NCBI GenBank assembly: GCA_036679645.1
Contig: JAZDCY010000074.1
Coordinates: 1 to 64,000, forward strand
Direction of reading: 5' to 3'
Source of the DNA: Gemmatimonadota bacterium
Lineage (GTDB): Bacteria; Gemmatimonadota; Gemmatimonadetes; Gemmatimonadales; GWC2-71-9
DNA length: 64,000 nucleotides
How positions within the stretch are numbered: position 1 is the first letter of the stretch; every line of letters starts with the position of its first letter. Under the pieces are notes generated by a model. That model did not search any database. It worked only from the letters and a program-made list of their open reading frames with translations, and had not been told where the DNA came from. Positions 52,418 through 64,000 of this stretch are shown piece by piece. The position numbers and the translations under genes are program-made.

Positions 52418-52702
52418 GTGAACAAGGCCGAGTTGATCGAAGCGCTGGCAAGCCGGCTCGACTTGCCCAAGACGGATGCTACCCGAACCGTGGAAGCGGT
52501 CTTCGGCATGGATGGGGTCATCGTCGAGACGCTGCGTGCGGGTCAGAGAATCCAGATCACCGGGTTCGGGAGCTTTCAGGCGAAGGCGCGCGCGGCGCGG
52601 ACCGGGCGTGATCCGCGGACCGGAAACCCAATCCAGATCAAGGCATCGACGCAGCCCACCTTCAAGGCGGGACAGGGGTTTAAAGACGCACTGAATCCCT
52701 AA
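52418..52702 (+). CDS. hup: DNA-binding protein HU
   Basis: SD GGAGG, GTG start, NKAELI...GFGSF...RTGRDPRTG...PTFKAG. Confidence 0.93.
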   Translation: MNKAELIEALASRLDLPKTDATRTVEAVFGMDGVIVETLRAGQRIQITGFGSFQAKARAARTGRDPRTGNPIQIKASTQPTFKAGQGFKDALNP

Positions 52703-54015
52703 CGGCTTTCGGGCCGGGCCGACACGCGGCGGCCCCGGATGACCGCACCGGTGAGGCCCCGCACGACCGCATCCAGGTCGTCGGGGCGCACCTCTACGAG
52801 CGTGAACCGGTCTCGGATATCGATACGTCCGATGTTCTTGCCCGGAATGCCGACCACGTTGGCGATCACGCCAACCACATCTCCCGGCCGGAGCCGGTCG
52901 GAACTGCCCAGGTCCAGATGGACACGTGTCTTGGCGAGTGCGTCGGGCACATCGGGCACAGCCGTGGCGGCAGGTGCCAGGTCCGCAGCGGCAGCGGCTA
53001 CGAGCGCCGGGTCGAACTCCTGAAAGAGGGGTGCCAGCGCCAGCAGTTGGCCGTCGAGGCCCCCTTGGCGCACGCGTTCCCGAACCCGACGCCGCAGCTC
53101 GGATGCCCGGTCGCGCGCGCGGTCGGCTTCGGATCGGCGGGGGAACGGGCGCAGCGTCTCGACCAGCCGTTCTAGATAGGGTACCTGGTCGGCGCGCAGT
53201 ACTACGAGGACGTCCTCGGCCGATGCCCGGAGTTGGGCGATGACCTCCTGCGAGACACAATCGACGGCGAGGACGAGCGCTACACGCTCGCCCGCCGGAT
53301 CCTCACCGATCTCCACCGCATCGGCGGCCGTCACCGACGCCCAGGCTTCGTGCCGGTGGGGAAGCGGGTCCCAGATCCGGGCCGAATCCGGGTTTATCGA
53401 GTTCAACGCCTCCTGCACGACGAGCCGCACGTCCTCTTCGCCGCTGGCTGTGGCGAACCGCACGGTTCCCGTAGACGCATGTGGCGGGCGCGAGGCTACG
53501 GCGACGGGCGCCCGGTGGGCGTGCCGAGTGAGCAGATCGGCAATACGTGTCTCGTCCGACGTGACGAAGATGCGCTGGGCGTCTCGCGCGTCGGCCAGCA
53601 ACGTGTCCAGTACCTCTGCAGCGTCGGCATGCGCTGTTTCCGGCCAGAGGATGACGATACGCCGGACGGGTGTGAGCTTGAGGGTGGTTTGGCGGACCAG
53701 GTCGAGCGCGTCTTGGGGTGTCACGACGAGCGTTCGGACCGCGCCGGCCCGAAGGAGCCGCCCGATACGGGTCCGGCCAGAAGCCACCGCGACAGATTGC
53801 AGGTGCGCGAGATCCAGGGTGCTTCGCTGCACGTCCCATGCGGTGGCGATCTCAGGCACGACGATCACGGTCGTCGGCGTCTCGCCGGACTCGATCGGAG
53901 CGGCGGCCAGCATGGGCCGGGCGGCCCATGCCGCCGGGGGACAGACGTACACCAACGGCTTGCCGCCGGTCAGTGCGGCGCGGTGCGCGGCGTCCAGCGC
54001 CGGCACGAGGTCCAT
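52699..54015 (-). CDS. Degenerate DEAD-box-like protein with C-terminal DbpA RNA-binding domain
   Basis: C-terminus LDLGSSDRLRPGDVVG...IGRIDIRDRFTLVEV...IRGRRV; remnants of motifs Ia/Ib only; SD GGAG before ATG 54015. Confidence 0.7.
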   Translation of the reverse strand: MDLVPALDAAHRAALTGGKPLVYVCPPAAWAARPMLAAAPIESGETPTTVIVVPEIATAWDVQRSTLDLAHLQSVAVASGRTRIGRLLRAGAVRTLVVTPQDALDLVRQTTLKLTPVRRIVILWPETAHADAAEVLDTLLADARDAQRIFVTSDETRIADLLTRHAHRAPVAVASRPPHASTGTVRFATASGEEDVRLVVQEALNSINPDSARIWDPLPHRHEAWASVTAADAVEIGEDPAGERVALVLAVDCVSQEVIAQLRASAEDVLVVLRADQVPYLERLVETLRPFPRRSEADRARDRASELRRRVRERVRQGGLDGQLLALAPLFQEFDPALVAAAAADLAPAATAVPDVPDALAKTRVHLDLGSSDRLRPGDVVGVIANVVGIPGKNIGRIDIRDRFTLVEVRPDDLDAVVRGLTGAVIRGRRVSARPESR

Positions 54016-54032
54016 GCTCACTCCACCCTCAA

Positions 54033-54060
54033 TTGTCAAAGATGGCTATCATGCTACCTT
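54033..54060 (+). promoter_or_regulatory. Putative promoter for the plus-strand run starting at dmpA
   Basis: TTGTCA, 16-nt spacer, TACCTT with a TG extended -10. Confidence 0.4.
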
Positions 54061-56548: not shown

Positions 56549-58195
56549 ATGCGTTCCACCGTTCTGGCTTGTTTCGCTCTCGCCTTTGTCGGGACGCTCG
56601 CGCCGCGCGCGACCGAGGCCCAGGTGGGCGCCCACGTCCTCACGAACGCTCGGTTCTGGACTGGTGACTCGACGCGGCCGTGGGTGGACGCCGTGGCCTA
56701 CCGCGGTGAATGGATCATCGCGGTCGGTGACCGGGACGAGGCGATCCGTGCCGCGGGTCCGGGTGCGGAGATCGAGGAGCTTGGCGGGGTGATGGTTACA
56801 CCGGGGTTCATCGACACACATACCCACTTCAACAGCGCCGGCCGGCTGCTACTCGGAGTCAACCTGCTCGATGTTGCCGACGACGCGGGCCTGCGACGGC
56901 GCGTCGCCGAAGCCGATCGCCGACTTCCCCGGGGTGCCTGGATGTTGGGCGGCGATTGGGGTGCGTACGACCTGGAATCGACCTGGGCGCCGCGTCGCGA
57001 TCCGCTCGACGAGGTGCTGACCGACCGGCCGGCGCTGCTCAACAAGTGGGATCGATCGCAATACCTGGCCAATGCGGCCGCGCTCCGCGCTGCCGGTATC
57101 GATCCCGCGACCCACGACGGCTACGTCGAAGGGGATGAGCTGCGCCGCGTTCGGGAAGCTGTTCCGCCCGCGGGCCTCGACCAGCGCCTGGCCGAGGCGG
57201 CGCTCGCGTTACATGATCTCAAGAGCCACGGCGTCACCGAGATCCACGACATCACCGGTGACGAGCAGATGCGCGTGTTCCAGCGCCTGCTTCGCGTAGA
57301 TTCGCTGACGGTCCGCGTATGCGCCCGACCGACCCTGGACAAGTGGGAGCATCTCGCCGCGCTGGGGATGCAAACGGGTTATGGGAACCGAATGCTCCGC
57401 GTATGCGGCCTCAAGGGATTCGTCGATGGGATCATGGGGAATTCCTCGGCAATGTTCCGGGAACCGTACCGGCACATGCCTGAGACGTCGGGACGCTGGC
57501 GCAGCATGATGTCTCCGCCAGGGAACATGGAACGGTTCATCGTTGGAGCGGATACGGCCGGGCTCACGCCGCAGATCCATGCGATCGGCGACCTCGCGGT
57601 CGACACGCTGCTCGACATGTTTGCAGCAGCCATCAGGGAAAATGGCCCGAGAGATCGCCGCTTCCGGCTGATCCATGCGCAGGTGGTGGAAGACGATGAT
57701 TTCGCGCGATTTGGGGAGTTGGGAGTGATCGCCGAGGTGCAGCCGTACCACGCCATCGACGATATGCGCTGGATGGAGGATCGGATTGGTGACCGGTCGC
57801 GCGGCGCGTACGCATTTCGCTCGCTGAAAGACGGCGGCGCGTTGCTGGTGTTCGGATCAGATTGGCCTGGAACCAACGCCTCGTGGTATCCGGCGGAACC
57901 CCTGCTCGGAATCTACGCGGCGGTGACCCGCCAAACGCTGGATGGCGAGCCGGCGGGCGGATGGTATCCGGACCAGCGACTCACGGTCCAGGAGGCGCTC
58001 GAGGCGTACACCATCGCTGCGGCGTACGCGGGTTTCAGCGAGAGCTGGAAGGGGAAACTCGCGCCCGGTTACGTTGCAGATTTTGCCGTGCTCTCGCAAA
58101 ACCTCTTTGAGATCGGACCGGCGCAGATCAAGGATGTCGCGGTCGAGGGGACGATGGTTGGCGGACGCTGGGTATATCGACGTGAGCACCCCTGA
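56549..58195 (+). CDS. Exported amidohydrolase (amidohydrolase_3/YtcJ-like)
   Basis: PGFIDTHTH, KGFVDG, HAIGD, RLIHAQ, FGSDWP; signal peptide. Confidence 0.9.
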   Translation: MRSTVLACFALAFVGTLAPRATEAQVGAHVLTNARFWTGDSTRPWVDAVAYRGEWIIAVGDRDEAIRAAGPGAEIEELGGVMVTPGFIDTHTHFNSAGRLLLGVNLLDVADDAGLRRRVAEADRRLPRGAWMLGGDWGAYDLESTWAPRRDPLDEVLTDRPALLNKWDRSQYLANAAALRAAGIDPATHDGYVEGDELRRVREAVPPAGLDQRLAEAALALHDLKSHGVTEIHDITGDEQMRVFQRLLRVDSLTVRVCARPTLDKWEHLAALGMQTGYGNRMLRVCGLKGFVDGIMGNSSAMFREPYRHMPETSGRWRSMMSPPGNMERFIVGADTAGLTPQIHAIGDLAVDTLLDMFAAAIRENGPRDRRFRLIHAQVVEDDDFARFGELGVIAEVQPYHAIDDMRWMEDRIGDRSRGAYAFRSLKDGGALLVFGSDWPGTNASWYPAEPLLGIYAAVTRQTLDGEPAGGWYPDQRLTVQEALEAYTIAAAYAGFSESWKGKLAPGYVADFAVLSQNLFEIGPAQIKDVAVEGTMVGGRWVYRREHP

Positions 58196-58820
58196 ACCGG
58201 TCGCCCGGTACATCGCGGAGCTTTTCGCGCCGGAGGACGACGCCCTCCGGGCAATCCGTACCGCGCATGCTACGGCGGAGCTTCCGGAGATTCACGTCTC
58301 GGCGGTGGAGGGCAAGCTTCTCCAGGTGCTGCTGCACGCCATTGGCGCGCACCGCGTTCTCGAGGTCGGCACCCTGGGCGGATACAGCGCCATCTGGATG
58401 GCCCGTGCGCTGCCAACCGGCGGGACGGTGACGACCATCGAGGGCAACGAGCGGCACGCCGCGTTTGCGCGCGAGGCGGTCACACGGGCGCAGGTCGCGG
58501 ATCGGGTCGAGATCATCGGTGGCGAGGCGCTCGACACGCTCGCGACCCTCCCCGGACCGTTCGATGCCGTGTTCTTGGATGCCGACAAAGCGCCATTGCC
58601 GCAGTACTTCGCACACGCCATGCGTCTGCTCCGCCGCGGCGGTCTGCTGGCGTGTGACAACACGTTCATGGACGGGCATATCGTCGAGGATGACGCCACA
58701 TCCTCGGATGTCGAGGGGATGCGTGAGTTCAACCGGCTTGCGGCGACCGACCGGCGTTTGGTGACGGCAGTGATTCCGGAACGGGACGGCTTGCTGGTGG
58801 CCATCAAGGTCGGCGACTGA
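58182..58820 (+). CDS. SAM-dependent O-methyltransferase (CCoAOMT/YrrM-like)
   Basis: LEVGTLGGYSAIW, FLDADK, DN; GTG start at 58182. Confidence 0.9.
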   Translation: MSTPEPVARYIAELFAPEDDALRAIRTAHATAELPEIHVSAVEGKLLQVLLHAIGAHRVLEVGTLGGYSAIWMARALPTGGTVTTIEGNERHAAFAREAVTRAQVADRVEIIGGEALDTLATLPGPFDAVFLDADKAPLPQYFAHAMRLLRRGGLLACDNTFMDGHIVEDDATSSDVEGMREFNRLAATDRRLVTAVIPERDGLLVAIKVGD

Positions 58821-59773
58821 CTACGACGACCTCGACCCGCGCCCGGGTGCGGAACGCGCTCGTACGCGCCGGCGGGGTGCCCGCGCGCGCGCAGGTGCGC
58901 ACGCGGGTGGCGCAGCCCGTTTCGCGACCCTTCGCGTCCGGTCGGGTGGTGGAAGGGTCCCGCATTCGGGAGATCGACTGCGGGTCACCCACCCACGCGC
59001 CCGACGGGGTTGGTTTTGCCGACGGGATCCAGCGCTGGGTCCTGGACGGACACTTGGGGCTCGCGCCCGTCGTCCGCGCCCACGTCGCCGCGGCGGTGCT
59101 GGTCCGCAATGACGGTCGATTCCGCGCGGAAACGTGTGAGACGGAGGAGTTCCTCGTCGTCCCGGGTAGGCGCGTCACGCCGGCGCAGCTCGCCGCGTTG
59201 CAGGATACCGGGCTTGCCGTGCACGAGACCGATCCCGCGGACCGCGCACACCCCATAGTGGATCGTTACTCAGCGGTGCAGGTCGTGGAACGGCGGCGGG
59301 AGGCGGCGGAACGGCGCGCCGTTACCACGTACGTCCAGCGTCATCCGCATGCGTGGGTCGTGGTAGACGGGCCGATCGGATTCTTCGGAGACGAGCCCGC
59401 GGCATCGCGCGCGGTGGGGCTGATCAAGACGCACGACACGCAGTTCCTCGAGGGCGCGGATCTCGAGATTGCGCTCACACTACGCGCGGGACATCGGTCG
59501 AGCGTCTTCGAGCGGACGGTACACGGTCGCCACGCGGTGTACTCGTGGTACCTTAGACTGTGGCCGTGGCGCGATGAAGATCTGTTGCACGGCCTGACGC
59601 GCCTCGAGCGGCGGCCAGACCCGGCGGCCGTGGTGGAAGCCGACGAGGTGAGTCGTTGGATGCTTGCCGAGCGCGCGCCGCTCTCGGCGCCGGAGGCCCG
59701 TTGGGATCGGTTGATATACCCAATTCGTGAAGTCGAAACCTATCTCCGCGCGCGCGCAGGGGGTTGGGGCTGA
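58817..59773 (+). CDS. nurA: NurA-like 5'-3' nuclease
   Basis: GFADGIQR, VVVDGP, GLIKTH, SWYLRL and YPIREVE resemble Deinococcus/Thermus NurA; directly upstream of herA; start CTG 58817 or GTG 58847. Confidence 0.72.
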   Translation: MTTTTSTRARVRNALVRAGGVPARAQVRTRVAQPVSRPFASGRVVEGSRIREIDCGSPTHAPDGVGFADGIQRWVLDGHLGLAPVVRAHVAAAVLVRNDGRFRAETCETEEFLVVPGRRVTPAQLAALQDTGLAVHETDPADRAHPIVDRYSAVQVVERRREAAERRAVTTYVQRHPHAWVVVDGPIGFFGDEPAASRAVGLIKTHDTQFLEGADLEIALTLRAGHRSSVFERTVHGRHAVYSWYLRLWPWRDEDLLHGLTRLERRPDPAAVVEADEVSRWMLAERAPLSAPEARWDRLIYPIREVETYLRARAGGWG

Positions 59774-61719
59774 CAGAAGGCATCGGACCCGTCATCGGGC
59801 GGGTCATCGCAACCGAGCAGCTTCCCGCAAGTCCGCACCAGTTCCATTTCTGGACGGCGACCGAGACCGCGATCGGGATTGGTGCCATCGTGCGCGTGGC
59901 GTCGCCGTCGCGCACGGTGTACGGCGTCGTGCAGGACGGGCGTGCGTACTCCGATCTCGCAACGCCGCTGCACGAGGTCATTGCGTCGGAAGGGGACCCG
60001 ACAGCACCCGATCCTCCCAGCCGACGCACCGAGATCCGGTTGTGGACGGCGGCGGTGCTCCGGCACGAGCCGGAGGAGCCTCTACAGCCCGTGCCCCTTG
60101 CCAACGTCCATGCCGCAACCGAATCCGACGTAGAGATCGCCCTGCGTATGGATGCGTATGTGCGAGGTGAAGAGCCGACGGCCATTCCTGTGGGACTCTA
60201 CACCGCCGGCGGGACCGAGGCGCCGGTCTACCTCGACGCCGACTTTCTGCTCGGGCCCGAGTCGGCGCATCTCAACATCAATGGGGTGTCGGGGCTCGCC
60301 ACCAAGACAAGCGCCGTCGTGTTCCTTATCGGGTCAGTGTTCGCGCACTTCCCCCGCTCGAAAGGTCGTATTGCCGCCGTCTGCTTCAACGTCAAGGGTT
60401 CCGATCTGGCGTTTCTCGACCAGCCGGCCGATCTGACAGAGCGGGATCGCGAGATGTACCGCGCCCTCGCCGTTCCGGCGGAACCTTTGAAGAACGTACG
60501 CTACTACGCACCGCTCAAGGCCGACGGCGTCAATCTGAACAGCCTGCGGTCTCATCCAGATCTAGTGGGATCGGTGGAGCCGCTCACGTGGGGGCTGCAC
60601 GAAGTACTCGACTACGCCGAGGTCCTGCTGAATCGGGACGATATCGATGCCAAGGCCGACGCGTTTCTCGATTTCCTCGCTGATCGGGTCGTTGGAAAGA
60701 CGTTCAACGACGAATGGGGCGGTCGCCACCGGGTCGAAAGTTTCGCGGATCTGGAAAAACTATTTCGGGCCATCTTTGATGGACTCGAGGCGACCGGCGG
60801 TCGCGACATGTGGCGCACCCATCACATCGCAACGATTCGTAAGGTGCGCAACCGTCTGCTCAATATTTCGACCCGTTGCAAGGGATTGGTAACCGACGAG
60901 GAAGGCGGCAACGATTTGCCGTTCGGCGCGTTCGACGATAGAGCCGTCTACGTCGTCGATGTGTCGGGTGTGGATCAATTGGGGCAGGATCTCGTATTCA
61001 CGCGCATCGTCTCCAAGCTGCGTGAGCACCTGGAACGGCGTGAGCTCGGGGTCGAGCACGTGATAGTGTTCGTCGACGAGTTGAACAAGTATGCGCCGGC
61101 GGACGGTCCCGAGACGTACGTGCGCCGCATGCTACTGGACATCTCCGAACGAGGACGGTATCTGGGACTCGTGTTGTTCGGAGCCCAACAGTTTCGGTCG
61201 CAGGTGCACCGCCGCGTCGTGGGGAACGCAGGCACGACCATCTACGGCCGCATGGACGTCGATGAACTTGCGACACCGGGATACCAGATCCTGTCGCCCG
61301 CTACCAAGATCAAGCTCGCCACGCTTCCGAAGGGTGAACTGATGGTGCGGCATCCGCACTTCACGCAGCCCGTCTTTCTGCGGTTCCCGCGCCCGGCCTC
61401 GTTGGCAGGCCGGCAGGGCATCGAGCGGTTCCCGCCGGCGGCGGACGTGCCGTTCGAGGATGCCGTGACACGACAGTTGGCGGCGCTGGACCGCCGGATT
61501 ACCGCTGCGCGCGTCAAGGACGTCATTGCCGGGCACCGCGACGAGGATGTGCGCTCCGCGTTGCTCGCCACGCGACGCGCACGGCCGGACGACCCGCTGA
61601 CGTTCTTTGTTGCCCGGCTGCACACCTCGATTCCGCGCCGGTCAGTGGAATCGGCGGAGCAGGACGATGGCCGGACCGTACGCCCACTTGCGCCGGTGGA
61701 GGATCCCTATGCGTCGTAG
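59764..61719 (+). CDS. herA: HerA-like ATPase/DNA translocase (HAS barrel plus FtsK/HerA domain)
   Basis: HLNINGVSGLATKTS (extended Walker A), FNVKG, VFVDELNKYAP (Walker B), ERGRYLG...AQQ; start TTG 59764 or CTG 59770. Confidence 0.88.
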   Translation: MGLTEGIGPVIGRVIATEQLPASPHQFHFWTATETAIGIGAIVRVASPSRTVYGVVQDGRAYSDLATPLHEVIASEGDPTAPDPPSRRTEIRLWTAAVLRHEPEEPLQPVPLANVHAATESDVEIALRMDAYVRGEEPTAIPVGLYTAGGTEAPVYLDADFLLGPESAHLNINGVSGLATKTSAVVFLIGSVFAHFPRSKGRIAAVCFNVKGSDLAFLDQPADLTERDREMYRALAVPAEPLKNVRYYAPLKADGVNLNSLRSHPDLVGSVEPLTWGLHEVLDYAEVLLNRDDIDAKADAFLDFLADRVVGKTFNDEWGGRHRVESFADLEKLFRAIFDGLEATGGRDMWRTHHIATIRKVRNRLLNISTRCKGLVTDEEGGNDLPFGAFDDRAVYVVDVSGVDQLGQDLVFTRIVSKLREHLERRELGVEHVIVFVDELNKYAPADGPETYVRRMLLDISERGRYLGLVLFGAQQFRSQVHRRVVGNAGTTIYGRMDVDELATPGYQILSPATKIKLATLPKGELMVRHPHFTQPVFLRFPRPASLAGRQGIERFPPAADVPFEDAVTRQLAALDRRITAARVKDVIAGHRDEDVRSALLATRRARPDDPLTFFVARLHTSIPRRSVESAEQDDGRTVRPLAPVEDPYAS

Positions 61720-62605
61720 CGTCATCCGCGTCGTCGTGGCGATCGTGCCGCTCATGATCCCGCTGGCGTCGTTGAATGCGCAGCAGGAGATTCTGCTGCG
61801 GTTTCGACCCGCGCCCGGGCACGTCGTGCGGATCCTCTCGACGTACACGGCCGCAATGACGTTCAAGAACCTGATGGGAGAGGGGCTCCCGCAAGACGCC
61901 GGCAGCCTGTCGGTGGAAGCCGAGATCATGCAATCGATAACCGACCGCGTGCGCTCGGTGGGTGGGGCTGTCACGGTAGATCGCACGGTCGATTCGACCC
62001 GCGCCACGGCGCGGCTGGCAGGTCTGGTCCAGTCGGGCACGGCCGATGCGCGGCAGCGAGCGACTGCGCGCGTCGTCATCAGCGATCGGCTGGAGGTACT
62101 CGATTTCGCCGTTACCGAGGCGGATTCGCTCACCGCGTTGGTGGAGTCAGCACTCCGCACGCCCATAGGCTACGAGTTTGCCCTGCCGGAACAGCCGATC
62201 CGTCCCGGCGACACGTGGGTGACCACACTCCGGTTTCCCTTTCAGAGCATCGACGACAACCGTGCGGACCAGACGCCCGGGCTCGATACGGCTGTCGTGG
62301 CCGAAGCAACATTCCGACTCGACAGCATCGTCGTGCGCGCCGGAGATACGCTGGCATATCTCGGCGTACGCGGCAATTTCCAACCGGTAACGATGACGGA
62401 GACGGCGGTGCAGGGCGTGAGTGGCTCGGGGACGATCTCCGGGGCTCTTGCGGGGACGCTGATCTGGTCGGCCGGATGGAACGCCTTCGGGTCCGGGGCA
62501 ATCCGGGCAGTGCTCGCGATGGACTTCGCTCTCCTCGATGGTGGACGGCGCGCCGCGTTGAGTATCGAGTTCGACGTGGTGAATCGGTTCGAGATACGGC
62601 CGTAG
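61709..62605 (+). CDS. Exported hypothetical beta-rich protein
   Basis: MRRSVIRVVVAIVPLMIPLASLNA-Q signal peptide; LPEQPIRPGDTW motif. Confidence 0.7.
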   Translation: MRRSVIRVVVAIVPLMIPLASLNAQQEILLRFRPAPGHVVRILSTYTAAMTFKNLMGEGLPQDAGSLSVEAEIMQSITDRVRSVGGAVTVDRTVDSTRATARLAGLVQSGTADARQRATARVVISDRLEVLDFAVTEADSLTALVESALRTPIGYEFALPEQPIRPGDTWVTTLRFPFQSIDDNRADQTPGLDTAVVAEATFRLDSIVVRAGDTLAYLGVRGNFQPVTMTETAVQGVSGSGTISGALAGTLIWSAGWNAFGSGAIRAVLAMDFALLDGGRRAALSIEFDVVNRFEIRP

Positions 62606-62611
62606 GCGGCC

Positions 62612-63799
62612 GTGAGAATCGCGCACCTCGCCGACCTGCACTTGGGATTCCGTCAGTTCTCGCGGCTGACGTCGCACGGTGTCAACCAGCGCGAGACGGA
62701 CGTGGCGCAGGTGTTTCGGCGGGCGCTGGACGCTGTGATCGACGCTGTGCCAGATCTCATCATCCTCGCCGGCGACCTCTTTCACTCCGTCCGGCCAACC
62801 AATGCGGCCATTCTGGATTCGTTCAACCAGCTCCGCCGCGTCCGGGCCGAGCTTCCCGAGACCCCTGTCGTCATCGTTGCCGGGAACCACGATACGCCAC
62901 GCTCGGCTGAGACGGGGACGATCCTGCGGTTGTTCGAGGCGCTCGATGGCGTGCACGTCGTAGCTTTTCAACCGCGGCGGCTCCACTTCGAACGGCTGCG
63001 CACCTCGGTATTGTGCGTGCCCAACATTGCCTGGAGCGTGGCTCCCCGTCCGGACATCGCCCCGGACCCGGACGCCGAGTGGAACCTGCTGGTAACGCAC
63101 CGCGAGGTGGAAGGTGTAGTACCCCGTCCCGCCGGCACCGCCGATTACGGCCCCATGCCGATCCGGCAACGCGATCTCCACGCCGACCAATTCGACTACG
63201 TAGCGCTGGGACATTATCACGTCGCCACGAAGGTTGAGCGCAACGTCTGGTATTCCGGTGCGCTCGAGTACGTCACCACGAACCCCTGGGGGGAGTCGCG
63301 CGAGCGGGGTGAGGCGGATGCGGCGGGGTCGAAGGGCTGGCTGCTGGTTGAGCTTGGCAAGCGGCTGCGTGTGCGTTTCCAGCCCGTCGAACTCGCGCGT
63401 GGCGTGGTAGATCTCGCACCAATTCAGGGTGCCGGGTTAGGGGCGGCCGAACTGGACCGCGTGATCGGTGACGCCGTCGCTGCGGTTCCGGGTGGTATCG
63501 ACAGGCAGATCGTGCGCCAGGTAGTGTACGATGTGCCCCGGATCACCGCGCGGGATCTCGATCACACGGCGATCCGGGAACTCAAAGCGCGTGCCCTGCA
63601 CTTTCGCCTCGACTTACGCCGTCCCACGTCGCCGCGAGAGGTCGGAGTCGGAGCTCCCGGCAGCCGACAGACGCTGCCGGATCTCGTGATCGACTATCTG
63701 AAGCACCGGCGGCTCCCGGCCGACGTCTCGCGCGACGCGCTCGTCTCGCTAGGTACGCGATATCTACAGGCGGTGGACGCGCACGAGGCGGAGCCTTAG
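62612..63799 (+). CDS. sbcD: Mre11/SbcD nuclease
   Basis: DLHLG, GDLFH, GNHD, TH and LGHYH metallophosphoesterase motifs, YSGALE. Confidence 0.92.
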   Translation: MRIAHLADLHLGFRQFSRLTSHGVNQRETDVAQVFRRALDAVIDAVPDLIILAGDLFHSVRPTNAAILDSFNQLRRVRAELPETPVVIVAGNHDTPRSAETGTILRLFEALDGVHVVAFQPRRLHFERLRTSVLCVPNIAWSVAPRPDIAPDPDAEWNLLVTHREVEGVVPRPAGTADYGPMPIRQRDLHADQFDYVALGHYHVATKVERNVWYSGALEYVTTNPWGESRERGEADAAGSKGWLLVELGKRLRVRFQPVELARGVVDLAPIQGAGLGAAELDRVIGDAVAAVPGGIDRQIVRQVVYDVPRITARDLDHTAIRELKARALHFRLDLRRPTSPREVGVGAPGSRQTLPDLVIDYLKHRRLPADVSRDALVSLGTRYLQAVDAHEAEP

Positions 63800-63801
63800 G
63801 C

Positions 63802-64000
63802 GTGCGGCTACACCGGCTGAAACTCGTCAACTTCCGGCAGCATGAGGCGACCGACATCACGTTAGGTGACGGGATTACGGCAATCATTGGGCCGAACGGT
63901 TCTGGCAAGACCACGTTGCTCGAGGCTATCGCGTGGGCATTCTACGGCACGCCGGCCGTGCGCGGCACGCGGGACTCGATTCGGTGGAACCGCGCGCCCG
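63802..64000 (+). CDS. sbcC: Rad50/SbcC SMC-like ATPase, 3'-truncated
   Basis: GTG start, RLHRLKLVNFRQH...GITAIIGPNGSGKTTLLEAIAWAFYG; open to the window end and absent from the ORF track. Confidence 0.9.
   Translation, partial: MRLHRLKLVNFRQHEATDITLGDGITAIIGPNGSGKTTLLEAIAWAFYGTPAVRGTRDSIRWNRAP

Follow-up and report, generated by a model that had tools for sequence, protein, structure and literature searches.

Genes for the nuclease NurA, the ATPase HerA and the pair Mre11-Rad50 form a co-oriented block at the end of a 64,000-nt stretch of DNA from a Gemmatimonadota bacterium (order Gemmatimonadales; GenBank assembly GCA_036679645.1, contig JAZDCY010000074.1, positions 1 to 64,000 of the forward strand), which is called the window below. 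The block is a mosaic of a Deinococcus-type NurA-HerA pair and a non-canonical Mre11-Rad50 pair that scores best on archaeal models. Within the order, Mre11-Rad50 is near-universal and NurA-HerA is an accessory, separable module. What is new is the order-wide synteny of these genes in bacteria and their likely independent assembly into a block.

Gene layout of the block

The source assembly comprises 4.05 Mb and is 92.7% complete; the window is the first 64,000 nt of its contig. The block consists of the following genes:

nurA: 58847..59773, + strand; 308 aa, starting at GTG, the first common start codon; predicted bacterial-type NurA nuclease
herA: 59764..61719, + strand; 651 aa, TTG start; Deinococcus-type ATPase/translocase
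passenger open reading frame (ORF): 61709..62605, + strand; 298 aa, DUF6263-like
mre11/sbcD: 62612..63799, + strand; 395 aa, Mre11-family phosphoesterase of a non-canonical subfamily
rad50/sbcC: 63802..66228, + strand (the window ends at 64000); 808 aa, with a zinc hook

As an earlier sequence-only reading of the window had stated, the four named genes are present as co-oriented open reading frames. They do not all abut, as it had them, since the 298-aa passenger ORF lies between herA and mre11. The start that it had given for nurA, 58817, is a CTG codon overlapping the stop of the upstream gene; it is kept here as an alternative to the GTG at 58847. The herA start overlaps the nurA stop by 10 bp, and the passenger ORF shares 11 bp with herA and stops 6 bp short of mre11. 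All junctions of the block either overlap or are spaced by 2-6 bp, an arrangement consistent with co-transcription. Scans of the block locus stayed at shuffle level for both sigma-70 promoters (1 predicted, 2.0 in shuffles) and terminators (8 predicted, 7.4 in shuffles). Each of the four genes is present as a single full copy in the assembly.

Conservation in Gemmatimonadales and across the phylum

Gene order was compared in a set of 41 relatives (source genome G000 included), in the best 80 of 592 confirmed GTDB loci, and in a phylum sample of 160 evenly spread genomes, each at least 93% complete, with 116 inside the order and 44 outside. The groups within the Gemmatimonadota sample carry the working labels f1 to f12, f4 to f12 being outside the order. 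All four genes are colinear in 25 of the 41 relatives, and five are truncated by contig ends. One genome is without herA, two are without nurA, and eight, belonging to family f3, lack both and keep mre11-rad50. In the GTDB locus set, the four genes occur together in 51 of 53 loci with enough flank. Across the order, 115 of the 116 genomes carry mre11 and 104 carry herA, and 101 of the 103 herA-bearing genomes examined have herA upstream of mre11 at a distance of 6 kb or less. An unpublished genome (G167) is part of the order tallies, is left out of this distance count, and is the sole basis of no claim. The sequence-only reading had staked its proposal on conserved four-gene linkage in relatives, and both the herA-mre11 counts and the four-gene loci bear this out.

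Where the pair is missing, the remainder of the locus is typically in place. In G063 the order is methyltransferase-passenger-mre11-rad50, with nurA-herA excised in place, and six further herA-less loci have neither nurA nor herA between the aminotransferase gene and mre11. In G022 (locus L065), herA is split over two frames, through either assembly error or decay.

Outside the order, a close herA orthologue was found in one of two f4 genomes and in the single f5 genome; none was found in f6 (0/8) or in f8 to f12 (0/14). Family f7 has distant herA genes in 14 of its 19 genomes, and the seven f7 loci that were fetched are all four-gene blocks with canonical SbcCD. Conservation of the herA orthologue throughout the phylum was therefore rejected, with 0/22 genomes in f6 and f8 to f12 and only distant genes in f7.

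The chromosomal setting of the block is fixed among housekeeping neighbours, with an aminotransferase gene upstream and a GNAT gene downstream; the latter stands after rad50 in 48 of the 49 informative loci. At 0.76-0.79, the GC content at third codon positions (GC3) of the block is close to that of the neighbouring genes (0.76-0.82). Given this match in GC3 and the fixed position, a recent genomic island was rejected.

NurA and HerA are Deinococcus-type

Neither window NurA nor window HerA matched a Pfam or NCBIfam family. For NurA, the library models appear too narrow, because the Deinococcus NurA chain itself is matched by sequence only at E 0.005. The AlphaFold2 model of NurA, built from 120 homologs, has a predicted local distance difference test (pLDDT) score of 90.5. 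In Foldseek, the best fold match is Deinococcus NurA (7F6D, E 9e-12, template-modelling score 0.60), followed by Thermotoga 1ZUP (E 3e-10) and Sulfolobus 2YGK (E 1e-5). The NurA/RNase H fold, on whose presence at this locus the sequence-only reading had made its claim depend, is thus found by model and fold search. The motifs quoted for NurA in that reading are present as well: D59-G60, VVDGP with D174, and IKTH with K194 and H196. Both DG motifs are in place together with the three catalytic residues (Asp, Lys, Arg) of Deinococcus NurA (D59, D174, K194 and R285 in all). D59, K194 and R285 correspond in the alignment to Deinococcus D53, K201 and R309 (with an inferred chain numbering offset of 20), whose mutation abolishes nuclease activity (PMC9960219). 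Among 95 distinct relatives, D59 is kept in 87, K194 in 93 and R285 in 92. Loss of the catalytic aspartate, replaced in 8 of the 95, was rejected for the source genome, in which D59 is present. Judged by its modelled fold, NurA is bacterial and Deinococcus-type rather than archaeal.

HerA matches 7F6D directly in phmmer (E 1.9e-43), and a profile of its 76-sequence family finds 7F6D at E 2e-143, compared with 4e-15 for archaeal 9X1L and 7e-7 for archaeal 4D2I. Its structure model (pLDDT 84.4) is closest in Foldseek to 7WRW (E 8e-40, 611 aligned columns); Thermococcus HerA (E 6e-26) and the Sulfolobus and anti-phage HerAs (about 1e-20) score lower. The model comprises an N-terminal barrel, a RecA-like ATPase with Walker A, Walker B and the catalytic acid, and a helical bundle. 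The HAS-barrel Pfam model matches 5 of the 76 family members, window HerA not among them. The Walker A and Walker B motifs that had been read from the sequence lie at residues 174-183 and D438/E439, respectively, and K181 (Walker A), D214 and D438/E439 (Walker B) are invariant in the 76 relatives. HerA is Deinococcus-type, not archaeal, and its catalytic residues are intact. No donor is inferred from the HerA tree (17 rows), given a long-branch warning and the absence of Deinococcus and archaeal rows. Complex prediction for HerA (residues 1-560) with Mre11 gave a score of 0.01, which neither supports nor opposes contact.

Mre11 and Rad50 lie outside canonical SbcCD

Mre11 is recognised by Pfam Metallophos (E 1.5e-13). 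Its NCBIfam scores are 73.6 bits for Mre11_Pyroc, 72.7 for Mre11_Sulfo and 67.8 for sbcd (TIGR00619), all under cut-off; the TIGR00619 cut-off is 77.65 bits, and six canonical controls score 107-323 bits on this model. The best PDB match is 1II7, and the metal site (D8, H10, D55, H93, H201, H203) is conserved in 63 relatives. Rad50 carries Walker A, a CPTC zinc hook, the signature, Walker B and the H-loop. It scores 188.5 bits on archaeal PRK03918 versus 77.2 on sbcC (TIGR00618, cut-off 478.5), and the PDB entries closest to it are Rad50 ATPases, among them 3QKT (E 5e-27). Both 3QKT and 1II7 are Pyrococcus proteins.

Nine Rad50 controls were scored alongside. Six, from E. coli, Thermus, Streptomyces, Chlorohelix, Sphaerospermopsis and family f7, are canonical and score highest on bacterial sbcC models, with 144-1456 bits on TIGR00618 against 77 for window Rad50. 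The other three, from an Arcobacter plasmid, a Pontibacillus plasmid and genome G120, are window-like. In the Rad50 head-domain tree (29 rows, four rows without Walker A being excluded), a canonical SbcC clade is split from the window-type group with support 100/98. Similarly, the canonical SbcD clade of the Mre11 tree (31 rows, two with an unmatched motif being dropped; support 98/94) excludes the window type. Mre11-Rad50 is intact and belongs to the superfamily, outside canonical bacterial SbcCD. By score the pair appears archaeal-leaning, with archaeal sampling in both trees consisting of a single divergent plasmid sequence. All archaeal equivalog cut-offs are missed by far, and the nearest ESM Atlas clusters are mostly bacterial. 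The term archaeal-style, which the sequence-only reading had used for the whole cluster, suits the four-gene set and, by score, Mre11-Rad50; it does not suit the Deinococcus-type NurA-HerA.

AddAB, RecBCD and the repair background

The source genome encodes RecJ, RecQ, RecO and RecA. The search for RecBCD and AddAB that had been proposed for this genome returned neither: RecC and RecD2 were not found, and AddA and AddB queries from relatives matched only UvrD. The genome has one UvrD and a lone PDDEXK_1 match, in a 253-aa frame. As the assembly is incomplete, absence of RecBCD and AddAB means 'not found' here. Ku is encoded at assembly contig C21:9097-9636, so end joining is likely also available.

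In the phylum sample, PDDEXK_1 matches occur in 35 of the 116 genomes within the order versus 44 of 44 outside. AddAB-size genes, defined as frames of at least 900 aa and tallied by hand among the matches listed (23 weaker matches stand outside this list), were counted in 21 of 116 genomes in the order versus 41 of 44 outside. On the same tally, only one of the 12 genomes of the order that lack herA has such a gene, compared with 20 of the 104 that carry herA. In family f7, AddAB-size genes occur alongside a four-gene block. The genomes are related and not independent, and the comparison is one of counts. In G134 the AddAB-like pair appears split, by assembly error or decay.

Relatives of the block in other phyla and its history

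The nearest HerA relatives outside the order are 18 of 80 metagenome loci, some of them near-duplicates, with 43-53% identity. mre11 or rad50 was found downstream of herA in none of the ten such loci with at least 4.5 kb, compared with 16 of 18 loci of close relatives. Three of the 18 have nurA ahead of herA. In one locus, the start of a window-type rad50 lies on the opposite strand, some 6 kb upstream. No adjacent nurA was detected for the sister-clade herA genes at L203, L209, L211, L215 and L224 (45-53% identity). The gene style of these five loci presumably resembles that of Armatimonadota. Window-type mre11 also occurs, unlinked, in f7 and in G120. The sister HerAs without mre11-rad50, together with the unlinked window-type mre11, suggest as the simplest reading that nurA-herA was recruited beside a resident, non-canonical mre11-rad50, likely in the ancestor of the order.

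Four-gene sets are also found on plasmids. Those of Streptomyces, Chlorohelix and Sphaerospermopsis carry herA, sbcD, sbcC and a profile-detected NurA (E 6e-18, 5e-21 and 3e-9, respectively), and the Pontibacillus plasmid NZ_CP062975.1 has an annotated nurA, an ATPase, a phosphoesterase and an SMC gene. In the herA-sbcDC-nurA blocks of Streptomyces, Chlorohelix, Sphaerospermopsis and f7, the sbcDC pair is of the canonical SbcCD kind. The Rad50 and Mre11 trees and the profile controls place the window pair outside this bacterial herA-block clade, so the recruitment in Gemmatimonadales was likely independent of the canonical bacterial herA-sbcCD blocks and of the archaeal operon. The Pontibacillus megaplasmid has a window-type Rad50, yet its ATPase is unmatched by window HerA, and it may be a third assembly. 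The plasmid blocks of NZ_CP134205.1 and NZ_CP128402.1 each adjoin a gene for an ImmA/IrrE-family metallopeptidase, a neighbour that hints at DNA-damage-linked regulation of plasmid blocks.

Downstream of their window-type mre11, f7 loci have an ORF of some 500 aa with a match to the Rad50 hook region and no Walker A (four rows checked). In G128, mre11 and the hook-region ORF share one 955-aa frame. From its sequence, the f7 ORF is possibly an ATPase-less Rad50 derivative. The loci are:

f7 mre11 with hook-region ORF: L174:6595-9110, L175, L176, L178; L177:5088-7952

Comparison with known systems

The best sequence and fold match for both window proteins is the NurA-HerA pair of Deinococcus radiodurans (7F6D, 7WRW, 7WRX; PMC9960219). 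Shared features are the Walker A variant, Walker B, the equivalents of NurA D53/K201/R309, the adjacency of nurA and herA, and a RecJ/RecQ/RecO background without RecBCD or AddAB. Identity in the fold alignments is about 26% for HerA and 19% for NurA. Unlike the Deinococcus protein, window HerA is without R495 and R552 at the corresponding positions, and the window pair is followed by mre11-rad50. In Deinococcus, sbcCD is probably located apart from nurA-herA.

Oceanithermus profundus has the order nurA-hepA(herA)-sbcD-sbcC, and recruitment of sbcD/sbcC to the pair was proposed there (Blesa et al. 2017, PMC5448004). The arrangement is therefore not unprecedented in bacteria. Oceanithermus is one genome, whereas Gemmatimonadales has an order-wide block with passenger genes. 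Given known families and a published bacterial precedent, the surprise is moderate. The archaeal operon of Sulfolobales and Thermococcales (PMC13748450) unites these four families in a single co-oriented block. Window NurA-HerA is, in contrast, bacterial-type; the order nurA-herA-X-mre11-rad50 matches neither of the two archaeal gene orders that the review gives; and the pair is dispensable in Gemmatimonadales. The window Mre11-Rad50 pair shares with canonical SbcCD of E. coli (TIGR00618/TIGR00619) and of the herA-sbcDC-nurA blocks the Mre11/Rad50 superfamily, the zinc hook and the tandem genes, and at 808 aa its Rad50 is shorter than canonical proteins (about 920-1150 aa). HerA-NurA of Sulfolobus islandicus is reportedly essential. 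None of the flanking genes examined encodes an effector of the anti-phage HerA systems (Sir2-HerA, HerA-DUF4297).

According to the same 2026 review (PMC13748450), no stable synteny links bacterial nurA to its three partner genes; the order-wide counts contradict this. The titles and abstract openings searched held no description of a Gemmatimonadota cluster; older mentions of bacterial clusters are possible.

Proposed role and alternative explanations

On balance, the block probably serves an accessory route of end resection alongside RecJ-RecQ. By analogy, two separable modules would jointly process broken ends for RecA-dependent repair in a lineage where AddAB and RecBCD are mostly absent. 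Mre11-Rad50 would bind ends and clean those that are blocked or hairpinned, as its archaeal and Deinococcus counterparts suggest. HerA, as a hexamer, would drive duplex DNA into dimeric NurA, which would cut mainly the 5' strand, and the 3' tail would pass to RecFOR/RecA, in parallel to RecJ-RecQ. Every enzymatic step of this scheme is carried over from work on the Deinococcus and archaeal enzymes. A mesophilic bacterial set of all four proteins bears on the disputed cooperation of Mre11-Rad50 and HerA-NurA in resection, and the natural deletion lineages, with and without AddAB, offer ready comparisons.

Several observations weigh against such a joint role. The Deinococcus HerA pore arginines R495 and R552, needed for translocation (PMC9960219), are unmatched in window HerA, where the alignment gives A446 and T504; Arg or Lys occurs at these positions in 0/80 and 0/73 matched relatives. 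Other basic residues may replace them. The same study reports roughly 10-fold higher resistance to UV and mitomycin C after nurA-herA deletion in Deinococcus, and in Thermococcus HerA-NurA cuts both strands, the authors of that work doubting a role in resection (PMC12977600). The modules are also loosely joined: inserts of at least 300 bp, passenger or other, separate them in 58 of the 101 linked genomes, and single genes have been lost, herA in G017 and nurA in G018 and G024. NurA-HerA is dispensable where AddAB is missing, as 11 of the 12 herA-less genomes lack an AddAB-size gene. The AddAB contrast between the order and its relatives amounts to about one lineage event among non-independent kin and consists of counts only. 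The lone divergent archaeal sequence in the trees weighs in the same direction.

Some of these observations would fit passive linkage, in which NurA-HerA works by itself, like its Deinococcus counterpart, and merely sits in a co-oriented run that collects passengers; it would bind ends and either compete with RecJ-RecQ or modulate their activity. Unrelated genes are retained equally well (GNAT in 48 of 49 loci, the aminotransferase gene, the DUF6263-like gene), the two modules often have inserts between them and can be lost one without the other, sister HerAs exist without mre11-rad50, and the Deinococcus deletion strain is the more damage-resistant one (PMC9960219). Set against this, the same families are clustered with other subfamilies in archaea, in f7 (7/7 loci) and on plasmids of four other phyla, and such repeated assembly suggests selection for joint action; passive linkage is considered unlikely, though a serious candidate. 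That NurA-HerA, with or without Mre11-Rad50, serves mainly to degrade incoming linear phage or other foreign DNA, as RecBCD also does, seems improbable to us. An antiviral role has been proposed for archaeal HerA-NurA and asserted for bacterial pairs (PMC12977600 and PMC13748450, respectively), related blocks reside on plasmids, and the pair is dispensable. However, PADLOC assigned no family to NurA or HerA and gave only generic SMC/ABC matches for Rad50, HerA resembles the Deinococcus protein in fold (E 8e-40) far more than it does the anti-phage HerAs (about 1e-20), and the block is highly retained at a fixed chromosomal place by housekeeping genes, with native GC3.

An obligate main resection machine that replaces AddAB/RecBCD in the order, the stronger form of what the sequence-only reading had offered as 'instead of', appears quite improbable. 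It would agree with the lack of detected AddAB/RecBCD in the source genome, with the PDDEXK_1 contrast (35/116 versus 44/44), and with the AddAB-size gene pairs carried by both f1 relatives that lack nurA only (G018 and G024). As a rule it is not supported, since 11 of the 12 herA-less genomes, single-contig G084 included, are without an AddAB-size gene, 20 of the 104 herA-bearing genomes have one, and f7 has both; RecJ, RecQ and RecO moreover supply a known alternative route. Since only one of the 12 genomes that miss herA has an AddAB-size gene, NurA-HerA is regarded as accessory. A more far-reaching reading, in which an ancestor of the order rebuilt the archaeal four-protein machine from different parts (a Deinococcus-type NurA-HerA and an archaeal-leaning Mre11-Rad50) during loss of AddAB, and in which the four proteins now act in one coupled pathway, is held to be doubtful. 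If true, Gemmatimonadales would be the first mesophilic bacterial lineage with break repair on convergently assembled archaeal logic.

Passenger gene and neighbouring genes

The passenger ORF has no Pfam match; its nearest ESM Atlas clusters are DUF6263 (score 0.95) from Gemmatimonadota. Its N-terminus looks signal-peptide-like by eye, and the product is likely exported and not part of a DNA machine. The DUF6263-like gene is kept where nurA-herA is deleted (loci L181 and L186). The gap between herA and mre11 is below 300 bp in 43 of the 101 linked genomes; in the best 80 of 592 GTDB loci it is at least 300 bp in 46 of 73. G014 and G007 have similar cassettes in the gap from herA to mre11, and in G017 such a cassette takes the place of herA (L052:4073-8415, L060, L067). 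The cassette genes presumably encode a MarR-like regulator, a flavin oxidoreductase and a chloride-channel-like protein.

The block is flanked by:

O-methyltransferase gene, upstream context: 58182..58820, + strand; Pfam Methyltransf_3, E 2e-43
GNAT acetyltransferase gene: 66215..67183 (beyond the window), + strand; 322 aa, overlapping the rad50 stop

The O-methyltransferase gene precedes nurA in only some relatives. The GNAT gene also follows rad50 in genomes without nurA-herA, and its linkage to rad50 is tighter than that of herA. Further upstream, a helicase-like ORF (52699-54039, - strand, 446 aa) is conserved ahead of the block across the order; Pfam finds only a C-terminal DbpA domain in it, and it is possibly a degenerate DEAD-box protein.

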